A DNA stretch of 64,000 nt from Candidatus Uhrbacteria bacterium (GTDB lineage Bacteria; Patescibacteriota; Patescibacteriia; UBA9934; GWF2-40-263). Numbering within the stretch: position 1 is the first letter of the stretch; each line of letters starts with the position of its first letter. Under the pieces are notes generated by a model. That model was not told where the DNA came from, ran no database searches, and was given only the letters and a program-made list of their open reading frames with translations. Location: positions 130,936-194,935 of the forward strand of contig JAERTI010000038.1 of assembly GCA_016844925.1 (NCBI GenBank). The letters are read 5' to 3'. Shown one piece after another: positions 6,808-42,514 of this stretch. The position numbers were made by a program, and so were the translations under genes.

Positions 6808-6869
6808 AAACAAGACCGCAGGTTTATCCCCTGTGGTCTTTTGTTTTTGTGGTAAAATTGCTTTGGAAT

Positions 6870-7439
6870 ATGCCTGACCCAAACCGCGCAGAAGAAAAAG
6901 AAGCTCCGATAAAAACGGAGCAGATTTCGGCACCTGAACAAGTACGAGAAGTTCCGGCAGCACCTGAGGTTACCCCTGAGGCAGTTTCGGCTATTGAAGC
7001 TGAACCGACTGTAGAGGCGGCACCAGAACGTGAGCCTGAGCCAGAAGAGAAGGCGGTCGAAAAAGTGACCGAAGCACCTGTTGTTCAAGAGCCTGTCACC
7101 ACACCCGTTGTGGCTCCGGCACCTGCACCTCAGAAAGATCGTCTAGAAAAAGAAATCGAGGCGATTATGGAAGAGGATCTGATGGATCTCTATCTAAAGC
7201 TTCCGCCAGATAAGCAGCAGGCGTTCAAGCTCAAGGGTGAAGAAACGCTCGGAAAGATTCGGCAGCTTGTGACAGCTTCAAAGATTAACGCGAAGAAGAT
7301 TTTCTCTTTGATTCGCGATTGGTTGAAGATGGTTCCTGGAGTGAACAAGTTTTTTCTTGCTCAGGAAGCCAAGATCAAAACAGATAAGATTCTCCTTGTG
7401 ACGGAGGAAGAAAAGAAACGCGCACAAGACGAACTGTGA
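6870..7439 (+). CDS. Pro/Glu/Ala-rich hypothetical protein with a conserved-looking C-terminal domain
   Basis: The N-terminal half is low-complexity PE/A-rich (APEVTPEAVSAIEAEPTVEAAPEREPEPEE). The C-terminal ~90 aa are non-repetitive. Its stop overlaps the start of the next gene (ATGA). The start is uncertain (ATG at 6870, or TTG at 6849). Confidence 0.5.
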   Translation: MPDPNRAEEKEAPIKTEQISAPEQVREVPAAPEVTPEAVSAIEAEPTVEAAPEREPEPEEKAVEKVTEAPVVQEPVTTPVVAPAPAPQKDRLEKEIEAIMEEDLMDLYLKLPPDKQQAFKLKGEETLGKIRQLVTASKINAKKIFSLIRDWLKMVPGVNKFFLAQEAKIKTDKILLVTEEEKKRAQDEL

Positions 7440-9994
7440 TGTATCTCTTTCAATTCGGTCTAACACCAGAGCCCGAGCCAGTACGTGTGGTGGCCCAGGG
7501 GGATCTTTTTATTCCTACGTTGATTTTGGCCGGTGTAGCAGCGTTGCTGATACTCATCGCACTGTTGTTCGTCGCGCGATTCTTTATTCGACGCATGTCA
7601 ATTGCCAAGCAAGGAACATTTCGTCGAGTGACACTGCTTATTACGTTGCCGAAGTTTAAGCGAGTTGAGGAAAGTGAACGTGGTCCATCGAAAGATGCGG
7701 TGCAGGAAGCAATTGCTGCCGCTGAGACCTTTTATTCTGCCATTGGTGGTTTGAAGGCTGAACGTGGACTTAAGGCTTGGCTCTACGGACGTCGTGACGA
7801 AATTTCTTTTGAGATTGTTGCCGAGGATAAGCTCGTGAAGTTTTATATTACGGTGCCTGTTGAAATGAGGGAGTTTATTGAGCAGCAACTTTCAGCGGCT
7901 TACTCAGACGCTTACACAGAAGAGGTTGAGGATTACAATTTGTTCCAGCCAGATGGTGTAATTCTCGGAAGCCATTTGATTTTGAAGCGTCAGCACGCAT
8001 TTCCCATTAAGACGTACAAGCAGCTCGACAAAGACCCCCTTAACGCTATTACAAACGTTCTTTCTCAAGTTCCAGATGGTGAAGGGGCGGCGTTTCAGTT
8101 TATTGTTCGATCAAGTTATGCCAAGTGGCGAAAAAAAGGAGTGACTATTGCGAGCAATATGCAACAGGGCATGAAGCTTGAGGATGCTATCCGCGGAAAG
8201 AAAGGAAAGAAAACGAACTGGTGGGAATTAGCAGGTTTTGGGAGTGGGTCGCAGCCTGAGCCAGAGAAGGACCACAGGCTCTCTCCACAAGAAGAACAGA
8301 TTGTAAAAGGAATCGAGGAAAAGGCGAGTAAGGCTGGTATGGATGTCTGTATTCGTCTTGTGGTTGCATCTAAACGTGCCAGTAGTGCTGAGACACTCAT
8401 GCGCAACATGCTTAACGCGTTTGCGCAGTTCAATATTTATCAGTACGGAAACTCGTTCGACAAAGTTGTTCCACGATCGAAGAAAAAAATCATCACGAAC
8501 TTTATCTATCGTTCTTTTGATGAGAGTCGCCGTTTGGTCTTGAACACGGAGGAGATGGCGAGTTTGTGGCACTTGCCGCTTCCGTGGACCGAGACGCCGA
8601 ATATTAAGTGGCTTGGTGCACGTAAGGGGCCTGCACCAGCGGAAGTTCCTGGGCCGGAGCCAGGAGCCTTGCACATGGGTTACAACAACTATCGTGGCGT
8701 GAAGACGGATATTTACATGAAGGGCAAGGACCGTTCCCGTCATATGTACCTTATTGGTAAGTCTGGTTCTGGTAAGTCGCAAACCATGGCGAAGTACATC
8801 ATTGATGATATTAAAAACGGACATGGTGTTGCTCTTGTAGAACCTCATGGGGACCTTGTTGAGCAGGTGCTTGGAAATATTCCAAAGGAGCGCATTGATG
8901 ATGTGATCGTGTTTAATCCGTCTGATTTGGAGCGACCGATGGGATTGAACATGCTTGAGGCACCAAATGCCGACATGCGTGACTTTGCGGTGCAGGAAAT
9001 GATCTCGATCTTCTATAAGCTGTTCCCACCAGAAATGATCGGTCCGATGTTTGAGCACCAGATGCGTAACTTCATGCTCACACTGATGGCTGATTTGGAT
9101 AACCCTGGAACTATTGCGGAGATTCCTCGCATGGTGACAGACCAAAAGTTCCAAGATAAGTGGCGCGCAAAGCTGACGGATCCTGTGGTGAAAAGTTTCT
9201 GGGAGGATGAAATCGATAACACCAGCGATTATCACAAGTCAGAGATGATGGGGTACCTGGTGTCTAAGGTAGGTCGCTTTGTGGAGAACGAGATGATGCG
9301 AAACATCATTGGTCAGTCCAAGAGTAGTTTCGATTTCCGTGAGATCATGGACAACAAGAAGATTCTTTTGGTGAACTTGTCCAAAGGTAAGACGGGTGAT
9401 GTGAACGCTGAGCTTCTTGGTTTGGTGATTGTGTCGAAACTCCAGATGGCGGCACTTACTCGAGCGGACATTCCTGAGGAAGATCGTCATGACTTCTTCC
9501 TGTATATTGATGAGTTCCAAAACTTTATTACCGATTCCATTGCCGTGATTCTTTCTGAGGCACGTAAGTACCGACTAAACCTGGTTATTGCCCACCAGTA
9601 CATCGGACAATTGGTGAAGAATGGCGATGCCACCATTAAGGAGGCGGTATTTGGTAACGTTGGTACAACATTTGTGGCGCGTATTGGTCCTGAGGATGTG
9701 GAGACGCTTGAGAGGATTTATACGCCAAACTTTACAGGGTACGATTTGATCAACTCGGACAAATACACCTGGTACGTTAAAATGATCGCAGACAACTCTC
9801 AGCTCAAGCCGTTTACCATGAACCTGACTCCGGCTGGTGATGGCGATCCTGAGCTTGCTGACGCGATTAAGCAGTTATCACGTCTCAAATACGGACGTGA
9901 CCGCGCGATTGTGTCTGAGGAGATCATTGAAAGAACACAAGTAAGTAAGACAGGCGCTAAAGAAGCGGCTCCTATGGGGGGCTTGAACAAATAA
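7436..9994 (+). CDS. conjugation/type IV secretion-type P-loop ATPase (VirD4/TraG-TraD- or VirB4-like, DUF87-like) with N-terminal TM helix
   Basis: N-terminal TM helix (LILAGVAALLILIALLFVARFF). Walker A motif YLIGKSGSGKSQT. Walker B motif FFLYIDEFQNF. The downstream motif RKYRLNLVIAHQYIGQL is typical of T4SS coupling/VirB4-type ATPases. The protein is 852 aa. Confidence 0.7.
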   Translation: MMYLFQFGLTPEPEPVRVVAQGDLFIPTLILAGVAALLILIALLFVARFFIRRMSIAKQGTFRRVTLLITLPKFKRVEESERGPSKDAVQEAIAAAETFYSAIGGLKAERGLKAWLYGRRDEISFEIVAEDKLVKFYITVPVEMREFIEQQLSAAYSDAYTEEVEDYNLFQPDGVILGSHLILKRQHAFPIKTYKQLDKDPLNAITNVLSQVPDGEGAAFQFIVRSSYAKWRKKGVTIASNMQQGMKLEDAIRGKKGKKTNWWELAGFGSGSQPEPEKDHRLSPQEEQIVKGIEEKASKAGMDVCIRLVVASKRASSAETLMRNMLNAFAQFNIYQYGNSFDKVVPRSKKKIITNFIYRSFDESRRLVLNTEEMASLWHLPLPWTETPNIKWLGARKGPAPAEVPGPEPGALHMGYNNYRGVKTDIYMKGKDRSRHMYLIGKSGSGKSQTMAKYIIDDIKNGHGVALVEPHGDLVEQVLGNIPKERIDDVIVFNPSDLERPMGLNMLEAPNADMRDFAVQEMISIFYKLFPPEMIGPMFEHQMRNFMLTLMADLDNPGTIAEIPRMVTDQKFQDKWRAKLTDPVVKSFWEDEIDNTSDYHKSEMMGYLVSKVGRFVENEMMRNIIGQSKSSFDFREIMDNKKILLVNLSKGKTGDVNAELLGLVIVSKLQMAALTRADIPEEDRHDFFLYIDEFQNFITDSIAVILSEARKYRLNLVIAHQYIGQLVKNGDATIKEAVFGNVGTTFVARIGPEDVETLERIYTPNFTGYDLINSDKYTWYVKMIADNSQLKPFTMNLTPAGDGDPELADAIKQLSRLKYGRDRAIVSEEIIERTQVSKTGAKEAAPMGGLNK

Positions 9995-9996
9995 TT

Positions 9997-10611
9997 ATGG
10001 AACTGTTTGTTGAAGAAGAACAATTTGAGCTCGAGCCAGATGTTGAGGAGCACGCCAACGTCATGGAGGTTGGTAATGAGCGAGATCGACTTGCTGTGCA
10101 GATGCTTAAGCAGGTGAGAGATTCTATTACGCACGTCATTCACTTACTCGAAGAAGGAGATACGGCAAGGGCCACTCGCCACATGGTTGATTTTGTCTCG
10201 AGGCGTAAGGCGGTTGAAGGAGAGTTGGAGATGACGACGGGATCGCGTGTGCTTGAAGGAGTCTTCGATGGACAGTCGATGGTTGGTGGTGATGGAGCAC
10301 GCTATGCGGTGCCGGAGAACTACGCTTCCAAGTCGAAGTTGGTTGAAGGGGACATGCTCAAGCTGCTAATCAAGCCCGATGGAGGTTATTTGTACAAGCA
10401 GATTGGGCCTGTGGAGCGTACGCGTATCGCAGGGAAACTTTCGATTGATTCATCCACACAAGAGCCAGTTGTTGTCTGTGGTGATGACGTGTATAAAGTG
10501 CTTGCAGCAAGCGTCTCTTACTTTAAGGGGATCCCTGGCGATGAGGTGGTTGTGGTTGTGCCAGCGGGTGGAAAATGTGTTTGGGCTGCCGTTGAAAAAG
10601 TACATAATTAG
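9997..10611 (+). CDS. hypothetical protein
   Basis: It starts 3 nt after the ATPase stop. It is acidic and has no known motif. Confidence 0.5.
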   Translation: MELFVEEEQFELEPDVEEHANVMEVGNERDRLAVQMLKQVRDSITHVIHLLEEGDTARATRHMVDFVSRRKAVEGELEMTTGSRVLEGVFDGQSMVGGDGARYAVPENYASKSKLVEGDMLKLLIKPDGGYLYKQIGPVERTRIAGKLSIDSSTQEPVVVCGDDVYKVLAASVSYFKGIPGDEVVVVVPAGGKCVWAAVEKVHN

Positions 10612-12393: not shown

Positions 12394-12467
12394 TCCCGGA
12401 TCGTCTAATGGCAGGACGAGTGGTTCTGGTCCACTAAATCGGGGTTCGAATCCCTGTCCGGGAACCA
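12394..12467 (+). tRNA. tRNA-Gln (anticodon CUG)
   Basis: Manual fold of a 74-nt sequence. Acceptor TCCCGGA/TCCGGGA. D-stem GTCT/GGAC with GG in the loop. Anticodon stem AGTGG/CCACT with loop TTCTGGT, giving anticodon CTG. T-arm CGGGG-TTCGAAT-CCCTG. Discriminator A plus an encoded CCA. Confidence 0.8.
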
Positions 12468-12509
12468 AGAAAGAACTGATGTAGTAGCATCGGTTTTTTC
12501 TTTTGCCCT
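12442..12509 (+). repeat. attL-type direct repeat: tRNA-Gln 3' end (T-arm to CCA) plus the downstream terminator-like hairpin
   Basis: gggttcgaatccctgtccgggaaccaagaaa matches 21787-21817 perfectly (31 nt). The following ~35 nt (hairpin catcggttttttctttt) are near-identical to 21818-21849. Confidence 0.75.
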
Positions 12510-12518
12510 AGTCATAAA

Positions 12519-13667
12519 CTAGGCTTCGAACGCATTATCTGAACCAGAACGTGGAGCATAGACATTTTGTGATGTGTCCGTATTGTGTCCAAAGGTGACC
12601 CATTCGCACTCTAATGTCATCACGGCTTGTCGCGCTGTTTCGTCTGCCACATGAGCATATCGTTCCGTCATTTTAATGGAACTGTGACCCATGAGCTTCT
12701 GCACCACACGCGTCGGAATCCCTTTTGCTGTTAGATCGGTCCCAAAGGTGTGGCGCAGTGTGTGCCAGCCAATTTTTCGCAACCCAACACGCTTGCAAGT
12801 ACGTGCCAATGCCTCTGACGACGCAGATCGACTCAAGGCCCCGCCATTTGCAGGACTTGTAAACACGAGCGACCCGTTATTAACGAGTTGCCACGTCGTT
12901 AGCGCTTGGTGTAGCGACGGTGTCATGTGGGCATATCGCACCTGATTGGTTTTAGTAGACTCAATCTTCTTGCCGGCTTTGTTTCGCCGAATACAGATAT
13001 GACCAGTTTCCAAATCAACGTCTTCCCAATGCAGAGCTAGTAGCTCCCCAATGCGCATTCCTGTGCGTACTGCCATAAGAGCCATGAGATTCCACCTCGG
13101 TTCTTTCTCGTCTGAAAGCAGCTTCTTGATCTCACTCTCTTTGAGGAAGTCAATCTTCGGCGCCTGCGATTTCAACCATTGCACGCTGGGAAGTTTCTTA
13201 ATATAGCCCCACTCATGTGCGCATTTAAGAACCTTGTTTAGAACGCTCAAATGATTATTGATCGTCTTGGCACCAATAGGCTTGCCGCGGAACGTCTTAC
13301 TTTTCTGACCACCCTTGAATCGCTCGATGGTTTGCGTAGTAACATCTCCTAACTTCAATTTCCCGAAGAATGGCACAAGGTGATTGTTTAGGATTGCCGC
13401 CTTACGCTTCACCTCTGATGACTTGTTATTCGTCCGTACATACGTTTCTGTCCACTCAGTCGCAAAGTCAACAAAGAGCGTGTCGCTTTTGTCTTCTTCT
13501 GGTTTCTTCGCGTAGGGCGACCCTGTGCGTAGATAGTTTTCCGTCATGATGCGCTCGATCGCTAGCGCACCCTTCTTGGTTCCATCCGGCGAAACTTTAC
13601 GAAACCTATCGCGTCCAAGACGTATGTCGGCATGCCATTTTCCTCGAATGATATTTGCCATACTCAT
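12519..13667 (-). CDS. int: tyrosine-type site-specific integrase
   Basis: The C-terminal catalytic region has R...HTLRHTFGTDL...MGHSSIKMTERYAHV (the R-H-R-Y tetrad). It is adjacent to a tRNA. Confidence 0.9.
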   Translation of the reverse strand: MSMANIIRGKWHADIRLGRDRFRKVSPDGTKKGALAIERIMTENYLRTGSPYAKKPEEDKSDTLFVDFATEWTETYVRTNNKSSEVKRKAAILNNHLVPFFGKLKLGDVTTQTIERFKGGQKSKTFRGKPIGAKTINNHLSVLNKVLKCAHEWGYIKKLPSVQWLKSQAPKIDFLKESEIKKLLSDEKEPRWNLMALMAVRTGMRIGELLALHWEDVDLETGHICIRRNKAGKKIESTKTNQVRYAHMTPSLHQALTTWQLVNNGSLVFTSPANGGALSRSASSEALARTCKRVGLRKIGWHTLRHTFGTDLTAKGIPTRVVQKLMGHSSIKMTERYAHVADETARQAVMTLECEWVTFGHNTDTSQNVYAPRSGSDNAFEA

Positions 13668-13879
13668 ACTTCTGTTATCGCTTCAAAGCTCGATTCATCC
13701 AAGAATCGTGCCACGTCCGATTCACGGATCCTCAAAAGGCCACGGATCTTGCAGAACCGAATCTGTCTGTCATCTATCATCCGGTAGACAGTCTGCCGTG
13801 AAACCCCTAGAAGTTTTGCCACAGCTATCGGATCCAGTAATCGTTCGATGACGCTAGATTGTTGCCTTGAAGCGTCCAT
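13664..13879 (-). CDS. xis: excisionase/AlpA-family helix-turn-helix DNA-binding protein
   Basis: LLDPIAVAKLLGVSRQTVYRMIDDRQIRFCKIRGLLRIRESDV is an excisionase-family HTH. Its stop overlaps the integrase start. The internal ATG at 13879 was chosen (72 aa); the ORF track gives 13948. Confidence 0.7.
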   Translation of the reverse strand: MDASRQQSSVIERLLDPIAVAKLLGVSRQTVYRMIDDRQIRFCKIRGLLRIRESDVARFLDESSFEAITEV

Positions 13880-13964
13880 ATTTAATTGTGAATGAGCAGG
13901 TCCGAGTGAAAGTATGTTGGTATGCCATACCTTCATTGGGCTACTCAATTATGCGGTCAGTTTG

Positions 13965-14507
13965 CTAATTTTCAAAATGATTTAGGTTTCTGAAGTTGGG
14001 AGCTAGTCGCTGTTGTCGTTGTAGGAGTCTCCGATAGCGTTTCGTTGGTCGCCCGTGCCAGTATTTGATCCTCAGACTTTCAATGATGTGCAACACACGG
14101 TCATAAGTACAAAATCCTTCAAAGGCTCCGACCAGTCCGCTGCGTGGTAGACGCTGTGAGCGATATGCAAGGCCGTAACACTCTCTGCATCCAAAGTACT
14201 CTCCTACGAGATACAGAACGGCACAGCGGCGCTTACACGGCCTTCCTCTAATGACAAGTGGGCAAATGAACCAGTAGCGCTGGCCGCCAAAGAAACAAGG
14301 GGTTGATGTGAGTTTAACTGGATAGTTCTGTGGTCCATGCCGAAACCTTGCATGTCCGTTGTTTGCATCAACAGATACTTTTGCCTCCAGTCCCTGTGAC
14401 CATCGGATACCACCACTCTTTGCTACTGGTTCGAAGTATCCATACTCACGTAGGTCAAATACACTCAGGTTTTCATGTCTTTCGCAGTCTGGTCGGTGCA
14501 TACTCAT
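13965..14507 (-). CDS. Cys-rich hypothetical protein (island-encoded)
   Basis: ORF of 180 aa with several Cys pairs (CPLVIRGRPCKRRC...CRECYGLAYR). No known family recognised. Confidence 0.45.
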   Translation of the reverse strand: MSMHRPDCERHENLSVFDLREYGYFEPVAKSGGIRWSQGLEAKVSVDANNGHARFRHGPQNYPVKLTSTPCFFGGQRYWFICPLVIRGRPCKRRCAVLYLVGEYFGCRECYGLAYRSQRLPRSGLVGAFEGFCTYDRVLHIIESLRIKYWHGRPTKRYRRLLQRQQRLAPNFRNLNHFEN

Positions 14508-14527
14508 TTGCCGAAATCAATAGGAGT

Positions 14528-14845
14528 TCATCTTGTCCTGTGATAATGCTTACATCGCTCTTCATAGCTGAAACATTCTTTTGGAATCCATGCGCGATAG
14601 CCACATTCATGGATACAAGACTCACGAATCGCCTTCTTTCGAATTGTTAAAAACAATCCTTCCTTGTAGCACCATGGACATCGTTGCTTAGTTGATTTAT
14701 TGCGTTTGAAACGAGATTTCTTTTCAAAAGACTTGTTTATCCCTCCTGTGTTGGGGGATTTGTTACTGAGTTGCTTTGTAGAGTTGTTTGTAGACATAGA
14801 ATTAAACCCGAAGTATAGAAAAGCGGTTGCAACAGGATGTCTCAC
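14528..14845 (-). CDS. small zinc-ribbon-like protein (island-encoded)
   Basis: CPWC...CIHEC...C.....C pattern in a basic protein. The start may be the internal Met of MSTNNSTK (14797). Confidence 0.4.
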   Translation of the reverse strand: MRHPVATAFLYFGFNSMSTNNSTKQLSNKSPNTGGINKSFEKKSRFKRNKSTKQRCPWCYKEGLFLTIRKKAIRESCIHECGYRAWIPKECFSYEERCKHYHRTR

Positions 14846-15101
14846 CTATAATCGGATGTTGGGCTATGGCTGCAAGCTCAACTCGTTGTAGAAGATGTCC
14901 CCAAAAGGGGTATCGAGCAGTTTTGCGACATAACGAATACTTGGTCGAACAAAAATCTCCACACCTATTTCGTAGCCCTGTGCCAAGCCACAAAAGAGAT
15001 GCAGAGATCTTTGGCACAGACCCTATTGAAACAAAAAACTATCGTACTGAAACGATAGCATCGCTTTCGGGGGTTTAGTGACAACAGGATTGATCCTGCT
15101 G

Positions 15102-15788
15102 TCACTCAGTCCTTTGGGCTTTCTTAACTTCTTTTTGAAATCGATAGATCATTCTTTTAATCCGTAGTGTCTCTCGTATGAATTCTTCATCTGTTGCATC
15201 ACTAGACACTTCCACCAACTGTGAAAACATGGGTTTCACTTCGTTGCCATCTGCATCAATCATCGTTTTTAACGATTTCCACTTGCAGTAGTAGCGATAA
15301 GCCTCCCCTAAATCTTCCTTGCTAGTAATAGGTTCCATCCAGTCCGAATCAGAGAGTTTTGACATGATCCTGCCAACAACTAGGTATGTATCATTCCAAT
15401 TCTTTTTTGAAACAGGTCCATGAAGTTTAACCGTAACGGTATCGGGTTCTTTAGGTTTTTGAATCACGCGAATGTTACTTGGTGCCGCAATGATTTGATC
15501 ACCAAATTTTACAATCTCCTCTACTGCGCCCCTGAATTGTTCTCCCAACATGTTTTTCTTCATAAAAGACCCAATAGCATCTTTCCAGCCATTAAGACGG
15601 TCAGAAGATTCGCATAGCCAAGTAGTCCATGATTCGATGGCTTCAAGGTCTCGTCTGAGCAGATCACTTGGTATACCAAATTTACGACGCAGCCTATTCA
15701 GGTCCTCGATAGCCCGGTCAGAAGCAAGTAAAATATAAAGTTTATTCCTGTTAATCCGTTTGTCCGCTGGCACAGATTTTTTAGTCAT
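15102..15788 (-). CDS. hypothetical protein (island-encoded)
   Basis: ORF of 228 aa. It is the first gene of the minus-strand int-proximal block, and a divergent promoter region lies upstream (15789-16042). Confidence 0.5.
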   Translation of the reverse strand: MTKKSVPADKRINRNKLYILLASDRAIEDLNRLRRKFGIPSDLLRRDLEAIESWTTWLCESSDRLNGWKDAIGSFMKKNMLGEQFRGAVEEIVKFGDQIIAAPSNIRVIQKPKEPDTVTVKLHGPVSKKNWNDTYLVVGRIMSKLSDSDWMEPITSKEDLGEAYRYYCKWKSLKTMIDADGNEVKPMFSQLVEVSSDATDEEFIRETLRIKRMIYRFQKEVKKAQRTE

Positions 15789-16042
15789 ACTTGTGACAAC
15801 TTAACACAAAGAGATTGATTTTTCAGCAAAATACGGTAGACTGAGTTCACAATTGCCTAAACTCACATTCGTGAGCATGGCACTTAAATCACACGCAAAC
15901 AGAGACGGTCTCGTGGCCGGCACTCATTTGCGTGTGTCCATTCCCGAAAGGGTCTGGGGCGAGCTTCCGAAAGGTTGCCGTCGTCGGTTCACGGGACCTT
16001 TTGTGTTACGTGAATCTCTAATTCAAAAACACACACAAAACT

Positions 16043-16555
16043 ATGTCTGATACAAAAAAGTCCATTTACAAAAAATGGTGGTTCTGGCTTCTAACCGTTT
16101 TCATCTTCTTCATGTTTATCGGAGCGTTTGGCTCTGGACCGGTGGAAACCATCGATACACCGGCAACGGATACGGTACAAGATGATGAGTCGGTAGCGAT
16201 TATCGACACACCACGCATTCTTAGTATGACGATCGACGAGGTCCGCGATGAGCTAGGTATGCCATTGGAAGACTCCTTCATTGACCCGACCTCCGAACAA
16301 ATCTATGACGAATCCATGACATGGATGAATGAATATGAGATTAGCGATTATATGTTCGTCATTGAATGGAATGCGACCTCTAGGAACGTCACAGGCGTGT
16401 TTGTCGCAACAGATGATCCAAGTGGTGCAACCAAGGATTGGGAGGTACTCGTACCGCTTCTAGGACTCCCAGAGGACACATCTGACTACCTTATTGATGC
16501 GGTTGAGGTTATATCCGATCCGAGTCAGTATACGGGAGTAAATGTGAGTCGGTAA
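16043..16555 (+). CDS. membrane-anchored acidic hypothetical protein (island cargo)
   Basis: N-terminal TM helix (WWFWLLTVFIFFMFIGAF) followed by a D/E-rich soluble domain. Confidence 0.5.
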   Translation: MSDTKKSIYKKWWFWLLTVFIFFMFIGAFGSGPVETIDTPATDTVQDDESVAIIDTPRILSMTIDEVRDELGMPLEDSFIDPTSEQIYDESMTWMNEYEISDYMFVIEWNATSRNVTGVFVATDDPSGATKDWEVLVPLLGLPEDTSDYLIDAVEVISDPSQYTGVNVSR

Positions 16556-16612
16556 GCAACACAAAAAACACCTTTATTTTTAGGTGTTTTTTGATTAAAA
16601 TGGACAACGAGA

Positions 16613-17158
16613 TTGTTGATCGGCATGTCATTAGATAAAGATCCAATTTTAGCGGGGCAGCCAAGTATTTCGACCGGTGGTGCGGAGTACGATTTTGTGA
16701 ACCTCTCAGAATCCGTAATCGAAGTTGTGAGTATAAATGTTCAATTGGTATGGGTTATGGGAAGATTTAACAAAAGTACAACCCCAATAAGAGTTATAAA
16801 AAATGCTCAAAACATGTTCCTTAGTGAGGAAATAAAATCACGTGATGAATTTTGGAAGGAGCATTGCGCGGCTTCAATGCGAGAGCTGATGGACAAGCAC
16901 TTTCATCAAAACTGCGCAAGATTTCTCGCCTCCGTACCTAAGAGACAGCACTCGGATGATGCGAGGAAGTTGCATGAAAGATTGAACAAACATAAGGATT
17001 TTCTAAACGATTTTTCTCACTTTAAACATTCTGCGATTGAGCATGCTAAGGTTCTTCTTGGCCGTAACGTAGCGTCATTAGGTGAAGAAGATTTCGATAA
17101 ATTGTGTACCAGCTTCTTGATTGACTTAAGTGACTACTTTAGCTTCAAGAAAAGATAA
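16613..17158 (+). CDS. hypothetical protein (island cargo)
   Basis: ORF of 181 aa (the start may be later). AT-rich. It is 2 nt upstream of the 1013-aa ORF. Confidence 0.45.
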   Translation: MLIGMSLDKDPILAGQPSISTGGAEYDFVNLSESVIEVVSINVQLVWVMGRFNKSTTPIRVIKNAQNMFLSEEIKSRDEFWKEHCAASMRELMDKHFHQNCARFLASVPKRQHSDDARKLHERLNKHKDFLNDFSHFKHSAIEHAKVLLGRNVASLGEEDFDKLCTSFLIDLSDYFSFKKR

Positions 17159-17160
17159 AT

Positions 17161-20100
17161 ATGGATCAGATTGAGTTGCATAAATTGATAGACTTGATAG
17201 TAAGCAAGCCACCTAGTGATTCTTTAAAAGAAGAATTGACGGCTTTGCTGCAGATTAACGCTGATGCGCGTGTATATTTCTTCGAGAACGTGGATGACCG
17301 ATGGCTGGATTGGCTTTGGAGAAATAATTTTCTCGATGTGCTGAAGGCTGGTGTTGAAAATTCAATTCGATACAGATACAAAACCCCGGAATTATTTTAT
17401 CTATCACGAATTTCTCAAACGTCCCCAGCGCCAGTTGTAGACACCATGCTCCAAGTCGAAATCTCTAAAGAGAATTTTAACCCGGAAGTTGTCGATCAAT
17501 TTTTGCGAATCGCTAGTGAACTTCCAGCGACTGAAATTGCGAGACTTGTCTTGAAAATAAAAGAAGAAAATTGGGTTGAGTTAATGAGTGCATTCAATGA
17601 CTGGGGCTTTGAATACAAAAAGATGTTTGAAGCCTTATCTGATGCGGGAGATCATGAGTCTTTGCTGACATTAGCTGAAGCTGTATTGTCCATTAAAGAC
17701 CAAAAGGCTTATAAAGAAAATTCGGGAGATTATTTTGGCGGAAACCCATTCTACTTCAAGGACTTATCATACTCATCAGTTTTTGCGTGTCTCACCGAAG
17801 TGGCGCACGACAATGTAGAGAAGGCATTGAGTATTGCTTGCAGCGCCCTATCTGCGATAGTCCAACTTGGTGACAGGGCTGGAGAGGATAGTTACTTTGA
17901 ATACAAGGATGGGTTCTATCTGTACGATACGGATTTCTTCAAGCTTGATTTGGTTAAAGAAACGAATAACTCAGATCGTGAGAATGTAAAGTCGTTGGCA
18001 GCGAGTATAAAAAAACTCGTTCAACGTGTATTTGAAAATCGTAATAAAGAGACCTCATCGAACATATTTGAAAAATATATTGAAGCGCTCCCATCCAGCC
18101 CTGCGATGTGGAGGTTGAAACTGTATGTCCTTAGTTTGCACCCAGAGTCCTTAAAAGAAGTTGCCAAAAAATACTTCTCCGCACTTTTTGACTCAATAAA
18201 ATCAAACAAGGGCTACTATGAAATTGCATCGGGCGCAGAATACAAGAAATCTCTCAAGAAGTGTTTTAGGATTTTTGATTCAGAATATCAACGCGACTAT
18301 GTTGCCAATGTCTTTAAATGCTTCTCTAGTAAACGAGATGATGAAAGAGAGGAAGGGTTGTACCAACGTACTGGTTGGGAAATCCTTTCTTCGATTTGTG
18401 ATAGCTTGAATAAAAAAGAACAAGAAGAGTGTGAAAAGGTTTTTGGTAAAAAATGTAATGCCGAGTATGAGCCACAACCGCTCATAGGAAAGATGCGCGG
18501 CGGCATGATTTCGCCACGCGGCCTTATCTCACAAGAAGAATTCGATGCCATTGACGTTGTGGACATTGTTGAAAAATTGAAAGATGAATGGACGCCTGAA
18601 CGTCTTAAGGAATCGAATCATTTTGACAATTTTACAAATCCAGTAAATGCAGAGGGTGTCGGGTCACAAATTCAATCCAGCATAAAAAATCGTCTAACTG
18701 ACTTCGCTCCTCATGCAAGTCTCTTCTTTGAAAGAGGTATCTTAGATGAACATTACACCCAATCTTTTTATAGAGGTATCTGGGAAGCTATTCGTGCAAA
18801 TAAAGAAGAGGCTCGCAGAGTTGACTGGGGTAGCCTAGTGAATGCAATTTTTGACATCGTCCGGTCAGGGGCAGAAAAGCCCTTTGATTTCAGTAAGCGA
18901 GAACGTGAAAGATTTGGCGGGTGGCTTGCTAGTTGGGAGGGTGTCCACAGCATCATTGCAGACGTATTGCAGGAGTTGTTAAGTGAAGTAGATGGTGAAC
19001 CTTTGGTGAACTTTGCTGAAGACAGGAATGAAATTTTCAAAATTCTCTCGTACCTTTTGCAGAATTCCGATCCGAAACCAGAGGATGAAGAATTGGAGAC
19101 GGCGGTGTCTAAGACACGATTGCCGGGCGGGAAGGATGAATACCTTGTTAGTGACCCGTTTAGTATTGCAATAAATTCAGTTCGAGGACGAGCCTATCAA
19201 GCATTGGCTCTGTTTGTGTATCAGGACGGAAAGGGTTTCCTGAAAGATGCTGCCGTAAAAATTGCTGATGATGTGAAAGGTGTGTATGAGCGGCTGTTAA
19301 AAGGAGAGAATACACGAGCTATTATGTTCTTGTTTGGGCATTATCTGCCATCTTTCTATTTTAGAGATAAGGAATGGATTCGTAGCCTCTTGCCATCAAT
19401 CTTTACAACGAATACAGAGAGGTTGTATTTGTACATCGCTGCATGGGAGGGTTATCTTGCGAACAATTTATACGAAGAAATCTTCTTTGAAACAGAATTT
19501 CAAAAACTCTATATGCGAGGGCTTGGAGTGGCCGGAAGTCAAGATCCAAATCGTAAGTATTTCAAAGAACCGGATGAAGGACTAGCAGTTCACCTTGCAC
19601 TAGCTTTCATGGTCTATCATCAGAAATTTGGTTTTGACGATGAGTTGTTTAAAAAGTTTTGGCAGCAAGATGTTGAACAGCAAGTAAAATTTGTCAATTT
19701 CATTGGACGAATGTTTGTATCCGGTGATAACAAACAGGCAAACAAACTCTTAGAAAATGAGCCGCTTGTGAAGCAGCGATTGATCGAATTTTGGGATTGG
19801 GCTATTGCGAACAAAGAAGAGAAGAAATTATTCTCAGGGTTCGGTTATTGGATGAGTCTTGACAAAAATATCTTTGAACCAAAGTGGCTAGCAGAACGGA
19901 TTGCGCAAACTTTGGAAAAAACAAGTGGTGCATTGGATTGGGAATATGGTCTAAGTAAAACCATCATCAAATTAGCCGAGGAAGCACCGGAAGAAACATT
20001 AGCGATAATTAGATTGTATTTATTGGAGGGCGGAGTGCGTAATAAACAACTGAAAATGCCATTTATGCGGTCTGATGAATGGTTTGAGGCGATTGGCATT

Positions 20101-20202
20101 CTATACAAAAAAGCAGAAACAAAAGATGGTACATATAGGCTTATCAATGACCTAATCGCTGAAGGGGGAAATCTCTTTTGGAAATTAAAAGAAGTTCTGT
20201 AA
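17161..20202 (+). CDS. large (1013 aa) predicted all-helical hypothetical protein (island cargo)
   Basis: A long uninterrupted ORF in an AT-rich context. It has no Walker A/B, no nuclease, no LanC/CHG motif and no TM helix. Confidence 0.6.
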   Translation: MDQIELHKLIDLIVSKPPSDSLKEELTALLQINADARVYFFENVDDRWLDWLWRNNFLDVLKAGVENSIRYRYKTPELFYLSRISQTSPAPVVDTMLQVEISKENFNPEVVDQFLRIASELPATEIARLVLKIKEENWVELMSAFNDWGFEYKKMFEALSDAGDHESLLTLAEAVLSIKDQKAYKENSGDYFGGNPFYFKDLSYSSVFACLTEVAHDNVEKALSIACSALSAIVQLGDRAGEDSYFEYKDGFYLYDTDFFKLDLVKETNNSDRENVKSLAASIKKLVQRVFENRNKETSSNIFEKYIEALPSSPAMWRLKLYVLSLHPESLKEVAKKYFSALFDSIKSNKGYYEIASGAEYKKSLKKCFRIFDSEYQRDYVANVFKCFSSKRDDEREEGLYQRTGWEILSSICDSLNKKEQEECEKVFGKKCNAEYEPQPLIGKMRGGMISPRGLISQEEFDAIDVVDIVEKLKDEWTPERLKESNHFDNFTNPVNAEGVGSQIQSSIKNRLTDFAPHASLFFERGILDEHYTQSFYRGIWEAIRANKEEARRVDWGSLVNAIFDIVRSGAEKPFDFSKRERERFGGWLASWEGVHSIIADVLQELLSEVDGEPLVNFAEDRNEIFKILSYLLQNSDPKPEDEELETAVSKTRLPGGKDEYLVSDPFSIAINSVRGRAYQALALFVYQDGKGFLKDAAVKIADDVKGVYERLLKGENTRAIMFLFGHYLPSFYFRDKEWIRSLLPSIFTTNTERLYLYIAAWEGYLANNLYEEIFFETEFQKLYMRGLGVAGSQDPNRKYFKEPDEGLAVHLALAFMVYHQKFGFDDELFKKFWQQDVEQQVKFVNFIGRMFVSGDNKQANKLLENEPLVKQRLIEFWDWAIANKEEKKLFSGFGYWMSLDKNIFEPKWLAERIAQTLEKTSGALDWEYGLSKTIIKLAEEAPEETLAIIRLYLLEGGVRNKQLKMPFMRSDEWFEAIGILYKKAETKDGTYRLINDLIAEGGNLFWKLKEVL

Positions 20203-20282
20203 ACAAATCAACTATGACTCATTTTACTAAACTGGATATAAATAAGATGAACGTTTTGCGGGTAGGTTAACAGCGGAGTTGT

Positions 20283-20891
20283 ATGTCTAACGAATGGAAC
20301 GATTTAATTTCTCATCCAAACCACACCTTGCGTATTGGTGGAATTGAGATTGAGGTACATGATCAAGTATTTACACCAAATCCGAGTATTACATTTTCTA
20401 GCTCCATGATCCTCGATCATTTACCAGATGTGAATGGTAAACGCATACTAGATGTTGGCTGCGGGACAGGAGTTGTTGCCGTTCATTGCGCACTCGCTGG
20501 CGCAGGGCATGTTACGGCGGTCGACATTTCTAATAAGGCCATCAATAATACTCGTATCAATGTTGCGAAGCATGGCGTGGAGAAAGTTGTCACGGTGAAA
20601 AAATCAGACCTTTTTAGTAAAGTAACTGGACAATTTGATTATATTTTTGCAAACCTACCTATCTTAGAGGAGGTTTGGTCAGCGGATACGAACGTGGACA
20701 ATCTGATCGAACGTTTTGTCACAAAATATCCTGAATATCTCAATAGGGACGGATCAGCATTCTTTGTGTGGGGTTCTTTTGCTGACATCGCACCTGTGCT
20801 GGCGTTATTAGATCGGTGTAGAATTATTTTCACCCAAACGTCAGTAGAAAAACTGGGATACACGTGGACGTTGTTTGAATTGAAAAAATGA
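20283..20891 (+). CDS. class I SAM-dependent methyltransferase (PrmA/MTS small-domain-like)
   Basis: Motif I ILDVGCGTGVVAV. The acidic residue VTAVDIS. FDYIFANLP resembles the PrmA/MTS (D/N)-x-P-type motif. The assignment as a protein or RNA MTase rather than a DNA MTase is tentative. Confidence 0.7.
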   Translation: MSNEWNDLISHPNHTLRIGGIEIEVHDQVFTPNPSITFSSSMILDHLPDVNGKRILDVGCGTGVVAVHCALAGAGHVTAVDISNKAINNTRINVAKHGVEKVVTVKKSDLFSKVTGQFDYIFANLPILEEVWSADTNVDNLIERFVTKYPEYLNRDGSAFFVWGSFADIAPVLALLDRCRIIFTQTSVEKLGYTWTLFELKK

Positions 20892-20892
20892 T

Positions 20893-21594
20893 ATGCCATT
20901 AGATAAAGTTACCTTTCAGAAGGATTGGTATGACCGCCTTGTATCCAAAACCAATGAAAAGACCGTTTTGCCTGACGCCATTAAATCACTTGTTTCAGAT
21001 CAGAGTGGTCATTGCTTGGAGATTGGCCTTGGAACATCGCCATTCTTTGCACAAAAGCTCGCCGATCAATTCGACAAGTACACCATTTTGGAAAAAGAGA
21101 CGGGAGAATATGAACTCCCAACTAACGCAGAGTTTATTGTTGGCGACTGGGAGTCGTATGGGTCACCAGACTTGTATGATGTCATTCTTGCATCTCATGT
21201 CGTCTACTACTTTGACGACAAACGTGCTGCTATCGACAAGATGGTTAACAAGCTCACAGAGAATGGCAAGCTACTCATTGTTGTGAATGGGTGTGATGGT
21301 GATTACGGACCGCTCAAATTAGCGTTTTCCGCTATGGTCAATCATCCGTATACGTTCACATACGATGTGGTTAAAGCTGTCTTGGACAGATACACATATA
21401 CCGAGCATAGCTTTCCGACAACGATTCCATTTAGTTCAGGTACCGATTTATTCGAAACACTCCGACTTTCCTTTGATCAGTACCCTGATGAGTATGAGGC
21501 GCACAAAGACGAGTTAATCACTTACTACGAAAATCAGACAAAAGACAATCTGTTTGTTATCAACCAGAAGGTGTTCGTTATTCAATCAAAATAA
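20893..21594 (+). CDS. class I SAM-dependent methyltransferase (Methyltransf_11/25-like)
   Basis: GHCLEIGLGTSP (motif I), an acidic loop, and DLYDVILASHVVYYFD (motif II/III). It starts 2 nt after the preceding MTase. Confidence 0.65.
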   Translation: MPLDKVTFQKDWYDRLVSKTNEKTVLPDAIKSLVSDQSGHCLEIGLGTSPFFAQKLADQFDKYTILEKETGEYELPTNAEFIVGDWESYGSPDLYDVILASHVVYYFDDKRAAIDKMVNKLTENGKLLIVVNGCDGDYGPLKLAFSAMVNHPYTFTYDVVKAVLDRYTYTEHSFPTTIPFSSGTDLFETLRLSFDQYPDEYEAHKDELITYYENQTKDNLFVINQKVFVIQSK

Positions 21595-21596
21595 TA

Positions 21597-21680
21597 AAAC
21601 ACCCCTCTCACATTCCCCGAACCTGCGTGTGTCCGCAATGTGTCCGTTTTGCGCCCAAAAATGTGAGTGAGGGTGTTTTA
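21597..21680. repeat. long imperfect inverted repeat (arms ~19 nt, spacer ~45 nt containing a gtgtccg x2 direct repeat)
   Basis: aaaacacccctctcacatt ... aatgtgagtgagggtgtttt. It lies immediately after the last cargo gene and before attR, and is followed by a T-rich run. Confidence 0.5.
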
Positions 21681-21786
21681 TTGTGTGTAAGCGTGAGAAT
21701 CGTGAGAAAGCAACTTTGACCAATGTTTACGGCCTCATTAGAATCTTTTCCGTAATCCTAGCCACGTCCTGAATCCTTGCATGGGA

Positions 21787-21849
21787 GGGTTCGAATCCCT
21801 GTCCGGGAACCAAGAAAAAACCGATGCAAGCGCATCGGTTTTTTCTTTT
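21787..21849 (+). repeat. attR-type direct repeat (partial copy of the tRNA-Gln 3' end plus terminator hairpin)
   Basis: The 31-nt sequence gggttcgaatccctgtccgggaaccaagaaa is identical to 12442-12472. It is followed by the hairpin accgatgcaagcgcatcggt plus TTTTTTCTTTT. No 5' acceptor half is present upstream. Confidence 0.75.
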
Positions 21850-40194: not shown

Positions 40195-41289
40195 ATGGGC
40201 TTGTTCGGAAAGAAAAAGCCAAAAAGTTTTTTGGGGGTCGACATTGGTGCGAGCTCTATTAAGATTGTCGAATTTGAAAGCAAGAAAGGACGCGCGACGC
40301 TCCTGACCTATGGGTATGCAGAGCTTCCATCCATGGAGGCGGGTGATACGATGTTTGAGGATCCCAAGGCGACTGGAGCGTTAGTCGCGCGTGTTTGGAA
40401 AGAGGCGGGGTGTAAATCAACGTCTGCTATGGCGGCGCTCCCAACGTCGAATGTGTTTTCGACCATTCTTTCCATTCCAGAAGTGAAGGATAAGAAGTTG
40501 CGTCAGGCTGCCGTGGATGCAGAGGTTGAGAAGCTCACGCCGCTCCCGCTTAGCGAGATGATCACGCAGACGACGTTTTTGGATGGAAAGAAAGAAAAGA
40601 AAGGGAAAAAGGGTGAACCGAAGACAAAGCAGAAAACATTCCGAGCGCTCGTGACGGGTTCTGCCAAGACGTTCATTCAGAAATACATTGAGATTTTTAA
40701 AGTCGCGAAGTTGAGTCTGCAAGCGATCGACACAGAATCTCTGGCCCTTATCCGTGCGTTGATTGGGAAAGACAAGGGAGCCATCATGATTCTGGATATT
40801 GGTTCCAAGCGAACGAATATCATGATCGTTGAAAAGGGGGTGCCGTTTGTTTCTCGATCGATTAATATTGGAGGGAACACAGTGACGCAGCAGTTGGTGC
40901 AGGCCATGAAGGTGCCAGAGGCGGAGGCAGAGCGGATTAAGCGCGATCTTGGTATGGCCGCAAGCACGGCATCCGGATTGGCTGGTGGTCTCCCTAAGGT
41001 TCTTGAACCGATCATGCAACCGCTGGTCAACGAGATTCGTTACGCGTTTCAGTTGTATGCAGGCATGGAGTTGGCTGAGGTAAAGGAGGTAGAGAAGATT
41101 ATCGTGACAGGAGGCTCGTCGCACTTACCACGTGTGCCTGAATATCTGGCCGAGACGCTGAACATGAATGTGTATCGCGGTGATCCGTGGGCGCGCGTTG
41201 TGTATCCAGCAGAGCTGGCGGCTGTGCTGGAGGAGATTGGGCCACGTATGTCTGTTGCCATTGGGCTTGCCATGCGCGAAATGGAATAA
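40195..41289 (+). CDS. pilM: type IV pilus assembly protein PilM
   Basis: FLGVDIGASSIKIVEF... is an actin-like ATPase fold typical of PilM. It is followed by a pilin gene. Confidence 0.85.
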   Translation: MGLFGKKKPKSFLGVDIGASSIKIVEFESKKGRATLLTYGYAELPSMEAGDTMFEDPKATGALVARVWKEAGCKSTSAMAALPTSNVFSTILSIPEVKDKKLRQAAVDAEVEKLTPLPLSEMITQTTFLDGKKEKKGKKGEPKTKQKTFRALVTGSAKTFIQKYIEIFKVAKLSLQAIDTESLALIRALIGKDKGAIMILDIGSKRTNIMIVEKGVPFVSRSINIGGNTVTQQLVQAMKVPEAEAERIKRDLGMAASTASGLAGGLPKVLEPIMQPLVNEIRYAFQLYAGMELAEVKEVEKIIVTGGSSHLPRVPEYLAETLNMNVYRGDPWARVVYPAELAAVLEEIGPRMSVAIGLAMREME

Positions 41290-41291
41290 TT

Positions 41292-41801
41292 ATGTCTATG
41301 AAGAATCAAAAAGGATTTACACTTGTGGAGCTGCTGGTGGTGATCGCGATCATTGCGCTCATCATTGTGTTCGCCGCTGTGGCTGTGAATAGCGCACGCT
41401 CTAAGACGCGTGATGCAACACGACTTTCAACCGTGCGACAAATGCAGTCTGCGCTTGAGGATTACTTTAACGAGTTTAATACGTACCCTGACGGGGACCT
41501 GCTGCCATTGGGCGATGCTTCAGAGAGTGCCTGTCTTGGCTCAACGGGATTTGCCGCAAGTTGTTCTGGAGACAGCTCGACATTCTTGCAGATTGTCCAA
41601 TCAACACACGAGGATGGTCTTGAGGGGATCGTCACCTGTGGTGAGCCGTCCAGAAAAGCCTTCTGTTACACCCAGCTTGAGGGAGGTGATGAGTACGTGA
41701 TACATTTTGAACTAGAAAACATGCTTGGATCTGTTGGTCTTCAGGCGGGTGTGAACTGCGCCACTCCTGAAGGTATGGAGGCGGGGATCTGCGCTGATTA
41801 A
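41292..41801 (+). CDS. type IV pilin / pseudopilin (prepilin-type N-terminal cleavage/methylation domain)
   Basis: KGFTLVELLVVIAIIALI is the class III signal with G(-1) F(+1) E(+5). The ORF-track N-extension from 41187 overlaps pilM and is rejected. Confidence 0.85.
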   Translation: MSMKNQKGFTLVELLVVIAIIALIIVFAAVAVNSARSKTRDATRLSTVRQMQSALEDYFNEFNTYPDGDLLPLGDASESACLGSTGFAASCSGDSSTFLQIVQSTHEDGLEGIVTCGEPSRKAFCYTQLEGGDEYVIHFELENMLGSVGLQAGVNCATPEGMEAGICAD

Positions 41802-41820
41802 TCATTAACTTATTACTTTT

Positions 41821-42417
41821 ATGGAAAAAGGACGACGGCGAGAGATGATTTCTGCAGAGATGCAGGATGTGGCAGGTCGACTAGATGTTGCTGATAGTGA
41901 ATTTAAGGCAGCAGAGGGTTTGCTCGAGGAAGCGATTAAGAATCAAGGGGATGTTCAGGAAGCGTCAGAGCTTTACGATAAAGCCGCTGAAGCTTTTGAG
42001 AGGGCTGCCGTTACGTATGAGGCACTTATTGTGGCTGCTGGCCGAGAGGATGAGCGACTTCGTGCGCTTGAGAGCAAGATGGAGGCAGAGCAAGGTTCTT
42101 TGAAGGCGGCGATGGAATCAGGTGACGTTGAGACGGTTCAGGCAGCTGCTACCGCTTTGGCTGAAACTGCTGGGCGTGTAAAAGAGTCTGTGGAGGCGAT
42201 GCCTGGATTGAGTGAAGATGAGCAAGAAGAGCTTGAGGGCTTGCTTGAAGAGTTGGGCATCACTGATGATAAGACTGCTGAGAGAATGAAGAATCGCATG
42301 AAAGTATTGCTTTCTGGTATGGAGACTCGTGATCCTGAGAAAGCCATTGAATCGATTAAGGCAGAGCCACAGACGGTTAAGCCTCGATTTACCAAACGAA
42401 CTTGGGCTGGAAGCTAG
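41821..42417 (+). CDS. acidic coiled-coil hypothetical protein
   Basis: 198 aa and E/A-rich. It is followed by a strong terminator. Confidence 0.5.
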   Translation: MEKGRRREMISAEMQDVAGRLDVADSEFKAAEGLLEEAIKNQGDVQEASELYDKAAEAFERAAVTYEALIVAAGREDERLRALESKMEAEQGSLKAAMESGDVETVQAAATALAETAGRVKESVEAMPGLSEDEQEELEGLLEELGITDDKTAERMKNRMKVLLSGMETRDPEKAIESIKAEPQTVKPRFTKRTWAGS

Positions 42418-42450
42418 AAAGAGAACGTTCGATAAACAATCGACAGGTTA

Positions 42451-42477
42451 CACCCCCTTGACAGGGGGTGTTTGTTT
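42451..42477 (+). terminator. rho-independent terminator
   Basis: cacccccttgacagggggtg followed by tttgttt. Confidence 0.75.
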
Positions 42478-42514
42478 TGGCAATGTCGACTGCCGTGTAG
42501 AAGAGGAGTCGATC

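Follow-up and report, generated by a model that had tools for sequence, protein, structure and literature searches.

What does a conjugation-type ATPase do when it is encoded on a bacterial chromosome among housekeeping genes? The question is raised by a gene block in a chromosomal segment of Candidatus Uhrbacteria (Patescibacteria), in which three consecutive genes, here called A, B, and C, stand directly upstream of dnaX. B encodes the ATPase, and A, B, and C occupy positions 6870-10611 of the stretch of 64,000 nucleotides that was analysed (hereafter the window). The Patescibacteria, which live in dependence on host cells, account for a large part of bacterial diversity, and a type IV secretion system is essential in the sole genetically tractable species. 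The family to which B belongs is annotated already, and orphan coupling-protein homologues are known from this phylum, having been reported in 2025 with their function left open (PMC12102498). A literature search did not find their architecture, plasmid ancestry, or partners described. New here are the full-length homology of B to plasmid coupling proteins encoded beside relaxases, the predicted fold of C, and an A-B-C-dnaX operon that is conserved in part of the phylum.

A, B, and C are real genes and not chance open reading frames (ORFs), because B has matches at E=0 and because 3992 homologues of C and 140 homologues of the C-terminal domain of A were found. For every gene examined, the best matches are in Uhrbacteria and related metagenome-assembled genomes. 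According to ORF calls and the sequence, the three ORFs and dnaX lie where the original prediction had placed them, and they are given here together with the features of B.

6870-7439, + strand: gene A, 189 aa counted from the ATG (alternative GTG at 6849)
7439-9994, + strand: gene B, 851 aa from the ATG (852 aa from the GTG at 7436)
7520-7588, + strand: single transmembrane helix of B, aa 28-50 (hydrophobicity and model)
7622-8668, + strand: DUF8128 domain of B, ~aa 62-410 (alpha/beta, basic, pI 9.1)
8669-9943, + strand: TrwB-like nucleotide-binding domain of B, aa 411-835 (all-alpha insert at ~aa 505-640)
8756-8779, + strand: Walker A motif of B, GKSGSGKS, aa 440-447 (sequence)
9500-9526, + strand: Walker B motif of B, LYIDEFQNF, aa 688-696 (sequence)
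9563-9598, + strand: motif RKYRLNLVIAHQ of B (RKY..AHQ), aa 709-720 (sequence)
9997-10611, + strand: gene C, 204 aa
10636-12186, + strand: dnaX (clamp-loader tau/gamma subunit), 24 nt 3' of C

Architecture, family, and plasmid relatives of B

All of the landmarks that had been ascribed to B, i.e., one N-terminal transmembrane helix, the Walker A and Walker B motifs, and a motif in the RLNLVIAHQ region, are present at the expected places, and the length of 852 aa given for it holds if the GTG at 7436 is used as the start codon. The helix is directly followed by RRMSIAKQGTFRR, an Arg/Lys cluster which, by the positive-inside rule, suggests that the N-terminus lies outside and that the remainder of the protein is cytoplasmic. 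In the AlphaFold2 model of B (pLDDT 87.8, pTM 0.77), a long N-terminal helix leads to an alpha/beta domain (~aa 62-376) and then to the nucleotide-binding domain, whose helical insert (aa 511-638) sits between Walker A and Walker B. No catalytic residue varies among 54 sequences of the family. The alpha/beta domain carries the DUF8128 label in the precomputed Pfam annotation, where the order of domains is DUF8128 and then PF02534/PF10412; no paper on DUF8128 was found in the literature search.

With regard to the family of B, its C-terminal half matched the Pfam model T4SS-DNA_transf (PF02534) at 39 bits, and TrwB_AAD_bind (PF10412, 33.6 bits) and TraG-D_C (23 bits) were also matched, all three above their cut-offs. 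DUF87 scored 22.3 bits, under its cut-off of 23.2, and the Pfam scan of B gave no match to FtsK_SpoIIIE (PF01580, E<=0.1), AAA_10, or CagE_TrbE_VirB. NCBIfam matches were all sub-threshold, namely to TrbC, CD1115-type VirD4 (42 bits with a cut-off of 250), and TraD, and far under every equivalog cut-off, and the NCBIfam HerA model reached 12.7 bits with a cut-off of 970. When a profile of the 54-member family was compared with the PDB, TrwB (E 7e-8) and DotL (3e-7) came out best, followed by HerA. It was also found by hhalign that B aligns with TrwB at a probability of 95.9% over 267 columns, through the all-alpha domain (TrwB 115-393), whereas TrwK/VirB4 as a single sequence stayed below TrwB at 9.8%.

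The comparison with VirB4 deserves some care, since TrwK and B are similar in size and two-domain layout and their C-terminal ATPase domains are related (hhalign 94-98%). Foldseek matched the C-terminal half of B to TrwB, Cagbeta, and DotL with TM values of 0.55-0.66 (0.6-0.66 for TrwB), and E-values were slightly better for TrwK/VirB4 (2e-14), with alignments across the full length of B. The plasmid relatives of B, described below, coexist with a separate AAA_10 VirB4. DUF8128 was also considered as a VirB4 N-terminal domain; hhalign against 12 plasmid VirB4 proteins gave 0.1%, and no match was obtained against TrwK alone. A VirB4-type N-domain is therefore rejected at the sequence level, and the Foldseek alignments leave a hint of likeness at the level of the fold.

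Taken together, the Pfam, hhalign, and Foldseek results support the assignment of B to the conjugation-type P-loop ATPases of the VirD4/TrwB coupling-protein type, and not to VirB4, FtsK, or HerA. The VirD4 half of the earlier assignment, which had named VirD4 and VirB4 as alternatives, is thereby upheld and the VirB4 half abandoned. Like TrwB, VirD4, TraD, and DotL, B has a RecA-like domain into which an all-alpha domain is inserted, together with Walker A and B motifs and an RK...Q motif that align with those of TrwB; both the TrwB-homologous domain with its motifs and the all-alpha insert that mark coupling proteins are thus found in B. TrwB, VirD4, TraD, and DotL differ from B in having two helices and no DUF8128, whereas B has one helix and a DUF8128 domain of 350 aa, and B also differs from these systems in lacking relaxase or channel genes nearby. 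An FtsK/SpoIIIE translocase was rejected because of the missing PF01580 match and the single membrane helix, and a HerA helicase because DUF87 and NCBIfam HerA remained below their cut-offs and HerA structures ranked below TrwB.

The ancestry of this protein is indicated by plasmids. A tblastn search of B against plasmids returned 364 matching records, and the best matches, which come from Bacillus, Priestia, Embleya (Streptomycetaceae), and haloarchaea, span residues ~96-842 of B, i.e., most of DUF8128 and the ATPase; Sulfolobus plasmids are also among the 364 records. The relatives are ATPases of 800-900 aa with 22-30% identity to B, annotated as 'DUF87 domain-containing protein' in Bacillus and as 'type IV secretory system conjugative DNA transfer family protein' in Embleya. 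The B HMM covers both domains in Bacillus, Embleya, and Priestia, and hhalign aligned B with a Bacillus subtilis plasmid protein at a probability of 100% (E 4e-55, 671 columns, query 78-793 against 30-733). In two Bacillus plasmids the B homologue is directly followed by a Replic_Relax relaxase, after which TcpC/TcpD/TcpE-like genes and an AAA_10 (VirB4-like) ATPase are found, and the Embleya order is PrgI-like, XF1762, ATPase, B homologue, Replic_Relax, and NlpC/P60 hydrolase. DUF8128 behaves as an independent module, as its counterpart in Halorussus is an ORF of its own just 5' of the ATPase ORF.

The coupling ATPases of monoderm and archaeal plasmids hence have the same two-domain body as B, DUF8128 plus a TrwB-like ATPase. 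They adjoin Replic_Relax, VirB4-like, PrgI/TcpE-like, and cell-wall hydrolase genes, whereas B is chromosomal and without a relaxase. The slot directly 3', which is occupied by Replic_Relax on plasmids, holds C and then dnaX in the B locus. Bacillus plasmid proteins have acidic C-terminal tails and no membrane helix, in contrast to B with its helix, and A and C are partners in the B locus only, no A-like or C-like genes having been found in the plasmid loci. Full-length homology to relaxase-adjacent plasmid ATPases shows that B is a domesticated coupling protein of monoderm type, and B belongs to a poorly studied coupling-protein type from monoderm and archaeal conjugation systems. Such a placement agrees with the published nesting of the Patescibacteria VirB4 clade inside the monoderm MPF-FATA class (PMC12102498).

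Two of the plasmid loci show further peculiarities. On a Halorussus limi plasmid (L100 7866-12009), the split DUF8128 and ATPase ORFs have upstream neighbours that encode a second 'TraM recognition domain' protein and a pilin. The closest match to B outside the Patescibacteria (30% identity) is on Priestia megaterium pFDU301A, recorded as an unannotated 1.08-Mb plasmid, where it is broken into three reading frames (L098 7722-11390), probably because of a pseudogene or sequencing frameshifts.

Conserved neighbourhood and distribution

At E<=1e-3 the family of B comprises 20760 cluster representatives, of which 5359 remain at E<=1e-30. For a comparison of loci, one genome per species was scanned, which yielded 80 related loci from many classes. 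Identity to B is 62-85% in Uhrbacteria, ~50% in Magasanikbacteria, 44-46% in Falkow- and Komeilibacteria, and 39-42% in Saccharibacteria, Microgenomates, and Peregrinibacteria, so that it drops in step with taxonomic distance, as predicted by vertical inheritance. In these loci B is flanked by housekeeping genes such as cysS, ribonucleotide reductase, CorA, tgt, Dus, and RmuC, and no secretion or relaxase genes recur beside it. In the window, no relaxase, VirB4, VirB6, or conjugative pilin was found among the ORFs scanned, in line with the earlier claim that other type IV secretion genes are missing here, and no second copy of B was found. The relaxase has been lost from beside B in the Patescibacteria, and B lies between housekeeping genes.

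In a survey of 3035 Patescibacteria genomes, VirD4-type homologues were reported from 2918 (96%), amounting to 5713 genes or about two per genome, VirB4 from 2417 (80%), and relaxases from 103; only 148 of the 5713 homologues lie near virB4, and distance from virB4 is the rule in this phylum (PMC12102498). The term 'orphan', as it had been applied to B, is accordingly apt for this window and does not extend beyond it, because 80% of the genomes carry a VirB4-type system elsewhere (PMC12102498).

Several loci depart from the arrangement in the window. Two full-length B paralogues (DUF8128 plus ATPase) adjoin on the same strand in L069 (1128-6163) and L051 (5908-9289), and in L049 (5992-13444) C and one further gene lie between two B paralogues; the pairs fit the published figure of about two coupling-protein homologues per genome and raise the possibility of redundancy or hetero-oligomers. 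Five B homologues (P0257, P0263, P0264, P0273, P0277) measure 1267-2006 aa and consist of the shared core and a Pro/Ala-rich, apparently disordered C-terminal tail. No Pfam domains were found in these long tails, and those of P0257 and P0264 finish with the common motif GE[VI]Y[VI]D..GNV. In Microgenomates-type loci (L054, L059, L060, L062, L070, L073, L079, L083), a convergent gene for a XerC/D-like tyrosine recombinase lies 3' of B and, in most of them, an FtsB/DivIC-like gene comes next. These neighbours could reflect inherited gene order or a link to the chromosome or to division.

Partner genes were counted in the 34 loci whose B is at least ~43% identical, 28 of which include enough upstream sequence for A. 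A lies directly 5' of B in 26 of the 28, so that the Pro/Glu-rich partner does co-occur with B; the gap is mostly -4 to +6 nt, with a 4-nt overlap being the commonest. C is found 3' of B in 24 and dnaX in 27 of the 34 loci. Hence the neighbours are conserved and, as described above, the best homology of B is not to FtsK, the two points on which the original prediction could have failed. In the remaining 47 loci, A occurs in none, C in two (Berkelbacteria and a Saccharibacteria-labelled locus), and dnaX in two. The A-B-C-dnaX order is therefore kept in the sampled ABY1/Paceibacteria-type lineages, including relatives with differing upstream genes, and not in Microgenomates or most Saccharibacteria loci.

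The transcription unit and the parts of A and C are as follows.

6812-6849, + strand: intrinsic terminator 3' of cysS, 11-bp stem and T-run (terminator scan and sequence)
6870-7154, + strand: N-terminal half of A, aa 1-95, acidic Pro/Glu/Ala-rich low complexity
7155-7436, + strand: C-terminal half of A, aa 96-189, conserved small domain, mildly basic
C aa 1-24, + strand: acidic disordered N-terminus with a conserved F..EP motif (conservation and model)
C aa 16-81, + strand: helical hairpin (model)
C aa 84-135 and aa 141-203, + strand: two small OB-like beta-barrels (model)

The strong terminator at 6812-6849 marks the upstream limit of the unit. The A/B junction is CTGTGATGTAT, in which the TGA stop of A (7437-7439) and the ATG of B at 7439 have one base in common; if the GTG at 7436 is used, the overlap is 4 nt (GTGA). 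The stop/start overlap that had been predicted is therefore real but not literally ATGA, and the B/C spacing, formerly given as 3 nt, is 2 nt (TAA TT ATG). Together with the gaps in relatives, this supports a conserved translational coupling of A and B. A terminator scan of the A-B-C-dnaX block found no strong stem-plus-T-run, with weak consensus matches only, inside C and dnaX. Since dnaX starts 24 nt after C without a strong terminator in between, it is probably the final gene of the transcription unit. An element resembling an extended -10 (TGgTAAAAT, 6850-6858), read from the sequence and unlisted by the promoter scan, lies ~11 nt 5' of the ATG of A, so close that the A-B-C-dnaX transcript may be nearly leaderless or else a product of read-through from cysS. 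The GC content of A-B-C is the same as that of the neighbouring chromosome.

The description of A as a Pro/Glu-rich N-terminal half joined to a separate C-terminal half agrees with its composition, as aa 1-95 have a pI of 4.4 and contain 17 Pro and 23 Asp plus Glu. Pfam, NCBIfam, and PADLOC gave no match to A, and its homologues are all 'hypothetical' proteins of 155-180 aa. An iterative HMM search of the 80 loci did not add further members to the A or C family. It was also observed that a same-strand ORF lies just 5' of B in 56 of 75 loci from all clades, and that most of these ORFs encode 120-190 aa with a polar, probably disordered N-terminal half; hhalign detected no relation of A to the short ORF families found 5' of B in other clades, and these families show no detectable relation to one another. 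A common theme, a polar N-terminal half and sometimes an RWL..W-type motif, seems to run through them, which is an impression only. Acidic or Pro/Ala-rich disordered segments recur across the system: A contains one, some C homologues have them at their termini, some B homologues end in such tails of 400-1200 residues, and the Bacillus plasmid relatives of B have acidic C-terminal tails.

C has no match in Pfam or NCBIfam. Its model (pLDDT 81) shows a helical hairpin followed by two small barrels, and EGVFDG, NYASKSKLVEGD.LKL, and KQIGPVER.R are strongly conserved motifs of the family, in which F90, Y109, K112, K122, K134, R141, and R143 are conserved residues. The best Foldseek matches are to the coiled-coil plus double-OB region of Mpa/ARC (7px9, 3fp9, 2wfw; probability 0.9-0.99, 126-143 columns), and they are weak (E 5e-3, TM 0.3-0.45). 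IF1, eIF1A, and the RNA-binding OB domains of Rho were also matched at a probability of ~1.0, with TM ~0.6 on the 72-residue IF1. No sequence relative of C was found among solved structures, Mpa and OB proteins included. DNA binding by C is plausible from the predicted fold and is not indicated by charge, because the barrels have a pI of ~6. In view of its position, C was also considered as a diverged relaxase; hhalign against two plasmid Replic_Relax proteins gave 0.2-0.3%, and the model is a hairpin plus two barrels, so that this candidate was rejected. Two C homologues (L008 6819-7664 and L026 7479-8204) have a Pro/Glu-rich C-terminal tail with an acidic tip (..DDDKDEFEEI and ..EQPEKLEI), and the combination of an OB fold, a disordered linker, and an acidic tip in some C homologues recalls bacterial SSB.

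Candidate roles of the locus

The favoured explanation, put forward tentatively, is that B is a vertically inherited descendant of a coupling protein and has kept its work, as receptor of substrates or as motor, for a chromosomal type IV secretion system which the Patescibacteria encode elsewhere. B would form a membrane-tethered hexamer, while A and C would hold the positions, and perhaps the roles, that belong to the relaxosome accessory protein and the relaxase in plasmid operons, and would act as adaptors or bind the substrate. The gene order of R388 (reference sequence NC_028464) offers a parallel, in that trwA-trwB-trwC has a small accessory gene directly upstream of trwB, as A is of B. 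The substrate would most likely be nucleic acid, handled without a relaxase and either exported or imported. The evidence is in keeping with the earlier suggestion that a motor for uptake or secretion may have been repurposed and given dedicated partners. The relaxase position is now taken by a conserved, predicted OB-like protein, and an acidic partner is translationally coupled to the ATPase. A, C, and the DUF8128 domain are hence concrete handles on DNA or protein export or import through a domesticated conjugation machine.

Some points weigh against a continuing secretion role. B lacks the canonical two-helix anchor and has one helix followed by the 350-aa DUF8128 domain; A and C are limited to part of the phylum; the barrels of C are not basic; and no physical or genetic link of B to a secretion channel is visible from the window, with no relaxase or mating-pair-formation linkage present there or recurrent in the flanks of the 80 related loci. 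A secretion role also leaves the linkage to dnaX unexplained. On the other hand, pilus biogenesis in Agrobacterium does not require VirD4. It was reported that the secretion system of Southlakia is essential and its coupling-protein homologue is not, which also counts against the proposal, as does the wider spread of coupling-protein homologues (96%, about two per genome) than of VirB4 (80%) (PMC12102498). The dispensability of VirD4 for pili would explain the Southlakia result, as an essential role of the secretion system in pili or adhesion is compatible with a dispensable coupling protein.

The main rival is an exapted DNA motor that is independent of any secretion system, an explanation that is possible but rather unlikely. 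In that case B would be a membrane-tethered hexameric translocase acting in uptake with ComEC or in chromosome handling, replication, or segregation, with C as its OB-fold DNA-binding partner and A as its regulator. The operon with dnaX in 27 of the 34 closer loci and the XerC/D-like recombinase and FtsB/DivIC-like gene beside B in Microgenomates loci speak for a tie to the chromosome; against this, both adjacencies are clade-limited and may be mere inherited gene order. The IF1/Rho-like OB matches of C and the SSB-like tail with an acidic tip (DDDKDEFEEI) on some of its homologues would suit a DNA-binding partner, whereas C is acidic to neutral. In addition, coupling-protein homologues are broader in distribution than VirB4, all but 148 of the 5713 lie away from virB4, and the survey authors hold their exaptation possible (PMC12102498). 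On the other hand, a DNA channel built from six single helices is unlikely, and Southlakia tolerates the deletion of comEC (PMC12857230). B is not simply a replacement of FtsK either, a variant that is weakened by the annotated ftsK of TM7x (10.1101/2022.03.25.485537).

Less likely still is an import machine, in which B and the chromosomal VirB4/VirB2-pilus system would act together, in the manner of Ced or Ted, to bring in DNA of the host cell. CedD of Sulfolobus is a chromosomal, membrane-bound VirD4-like ATPase whose gene lies away from those of the rest of its system, a domesticated conjugation-like machine with VirB2-like pili; no relaxase is involved, and DNA import depends on CedD (PMC11823120). 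CedD and TedD are like B in being chromosomal, membrane-bound, VirD4-like, and without a relaxase, but in sequence CedD resembles B in the P-loop only (NCBIfam CedD, 21 bits), partners like A or C have not been described for it, and its import role is experimental whereas B is known here from sequence alone. B would be an inward-facing coupling motor like CedD, C would capture or thread the incoming strand, the acidic tail of A would regulate the motor, and co-transcription with dnaX would reflect the handing of imported DNA to replication or repair. If true, such a machine would feed organisms that are unable to make nucleotides, and would be a bacterial counterpart of archaeal import with a new pair of partner proteins.

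It is improbable that B is a protein-threading machine, in which C would form a hexameric coiled-coil plus OB ring (Mpa/ARC-like or PAN-like) atop the B hexamer and proteins would be recognised via acidic disordered segments and unfolded or exported. Such segments recur in A, at C termini, and in the tails of B homologues, and DotL-type coupling complexes recognise Glu-rich signals. The Mpa/ARC region provides the best Foldseek matches of C and has the same order of elements, a helical region and then two small beta-barrels, but these matches reach only E 5e-3 and TM 0.3-0.45, and the model of C has an intramolecular helical hairpin, not an intermolecular coiled coil. Moreover, C is a free-standing protein of 204 aa, whereas the Mpa/ARC region is fused to its ATPase, and there is no sequence relation between the two.

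The view that an integrative conjugative or mobilisable element happens to lie here and uses B as its active coupling protein is largely refuted: the closest full-length relatives are plasmid-borne beside relaxases and a 9.3-kb integrase-bearing island begins 1.8 kb downstream, but the locus lacks a relaxase, an oriT-type partner, and channel genes, it is flanked by cysS and dnaX, with A-B-C-dnaX kept behind other upstream genes in relatives, the GC content is that of the surrounding chromosome, and the island lies beyond dnaX with its own att repeats and is missing from relatives that retain A-B-C-dnaX. An anti-phage defence ATPase, HerA-like or like mad8 of MADS, is just as implausible, since the PADLOC matches (mad8 at 55 bits on the ATPase part, HerA models at 23 bits) are limited to the generic P-loop domain, no methyltransferase, nuclease, or other defence partner adjoins B, and B is near-universal and vertical with a core-genome position (PMC12102498), whereas defence genes are typically patchy.

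Other elements of the window

A connection had also been suggested between B and the type IV pilus genes at 40195-43779. It finds no support, as these genes are 30 kb away and no pil genes recur beside B in the 80 loci. Inside the pilus gene block, ARAGORN called a 98-nt tRNA-Ala at 41550-41647 (anticodon position 38), overlapping the ORF at 41187-41801; either the call is spurious or the tRNA is unusually long because of an intron.

The island mentioned above is a 9.3-kb integrated element at tRNA-Gln (12394-12467), within 12394-21849 of the window. Direct repeats of 63 nt (12442-12504 and 21787-21849; 90% identical) delimit the island, and it is missing from 99%-identical relatives (L001, L002), in which dnaX is followed by an MFS gene. 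The island carries a tyrosine integrase (12519-13667, - strand) and low-GC ORFs without Pfam matches. A 1013-aa protein (17161-20202) matches the C-terminal two thirds of the PADLOC Dsr1 model at 70 bits, two methyltransferases (20283-21594) match mad2, and the island is probably a defence island.

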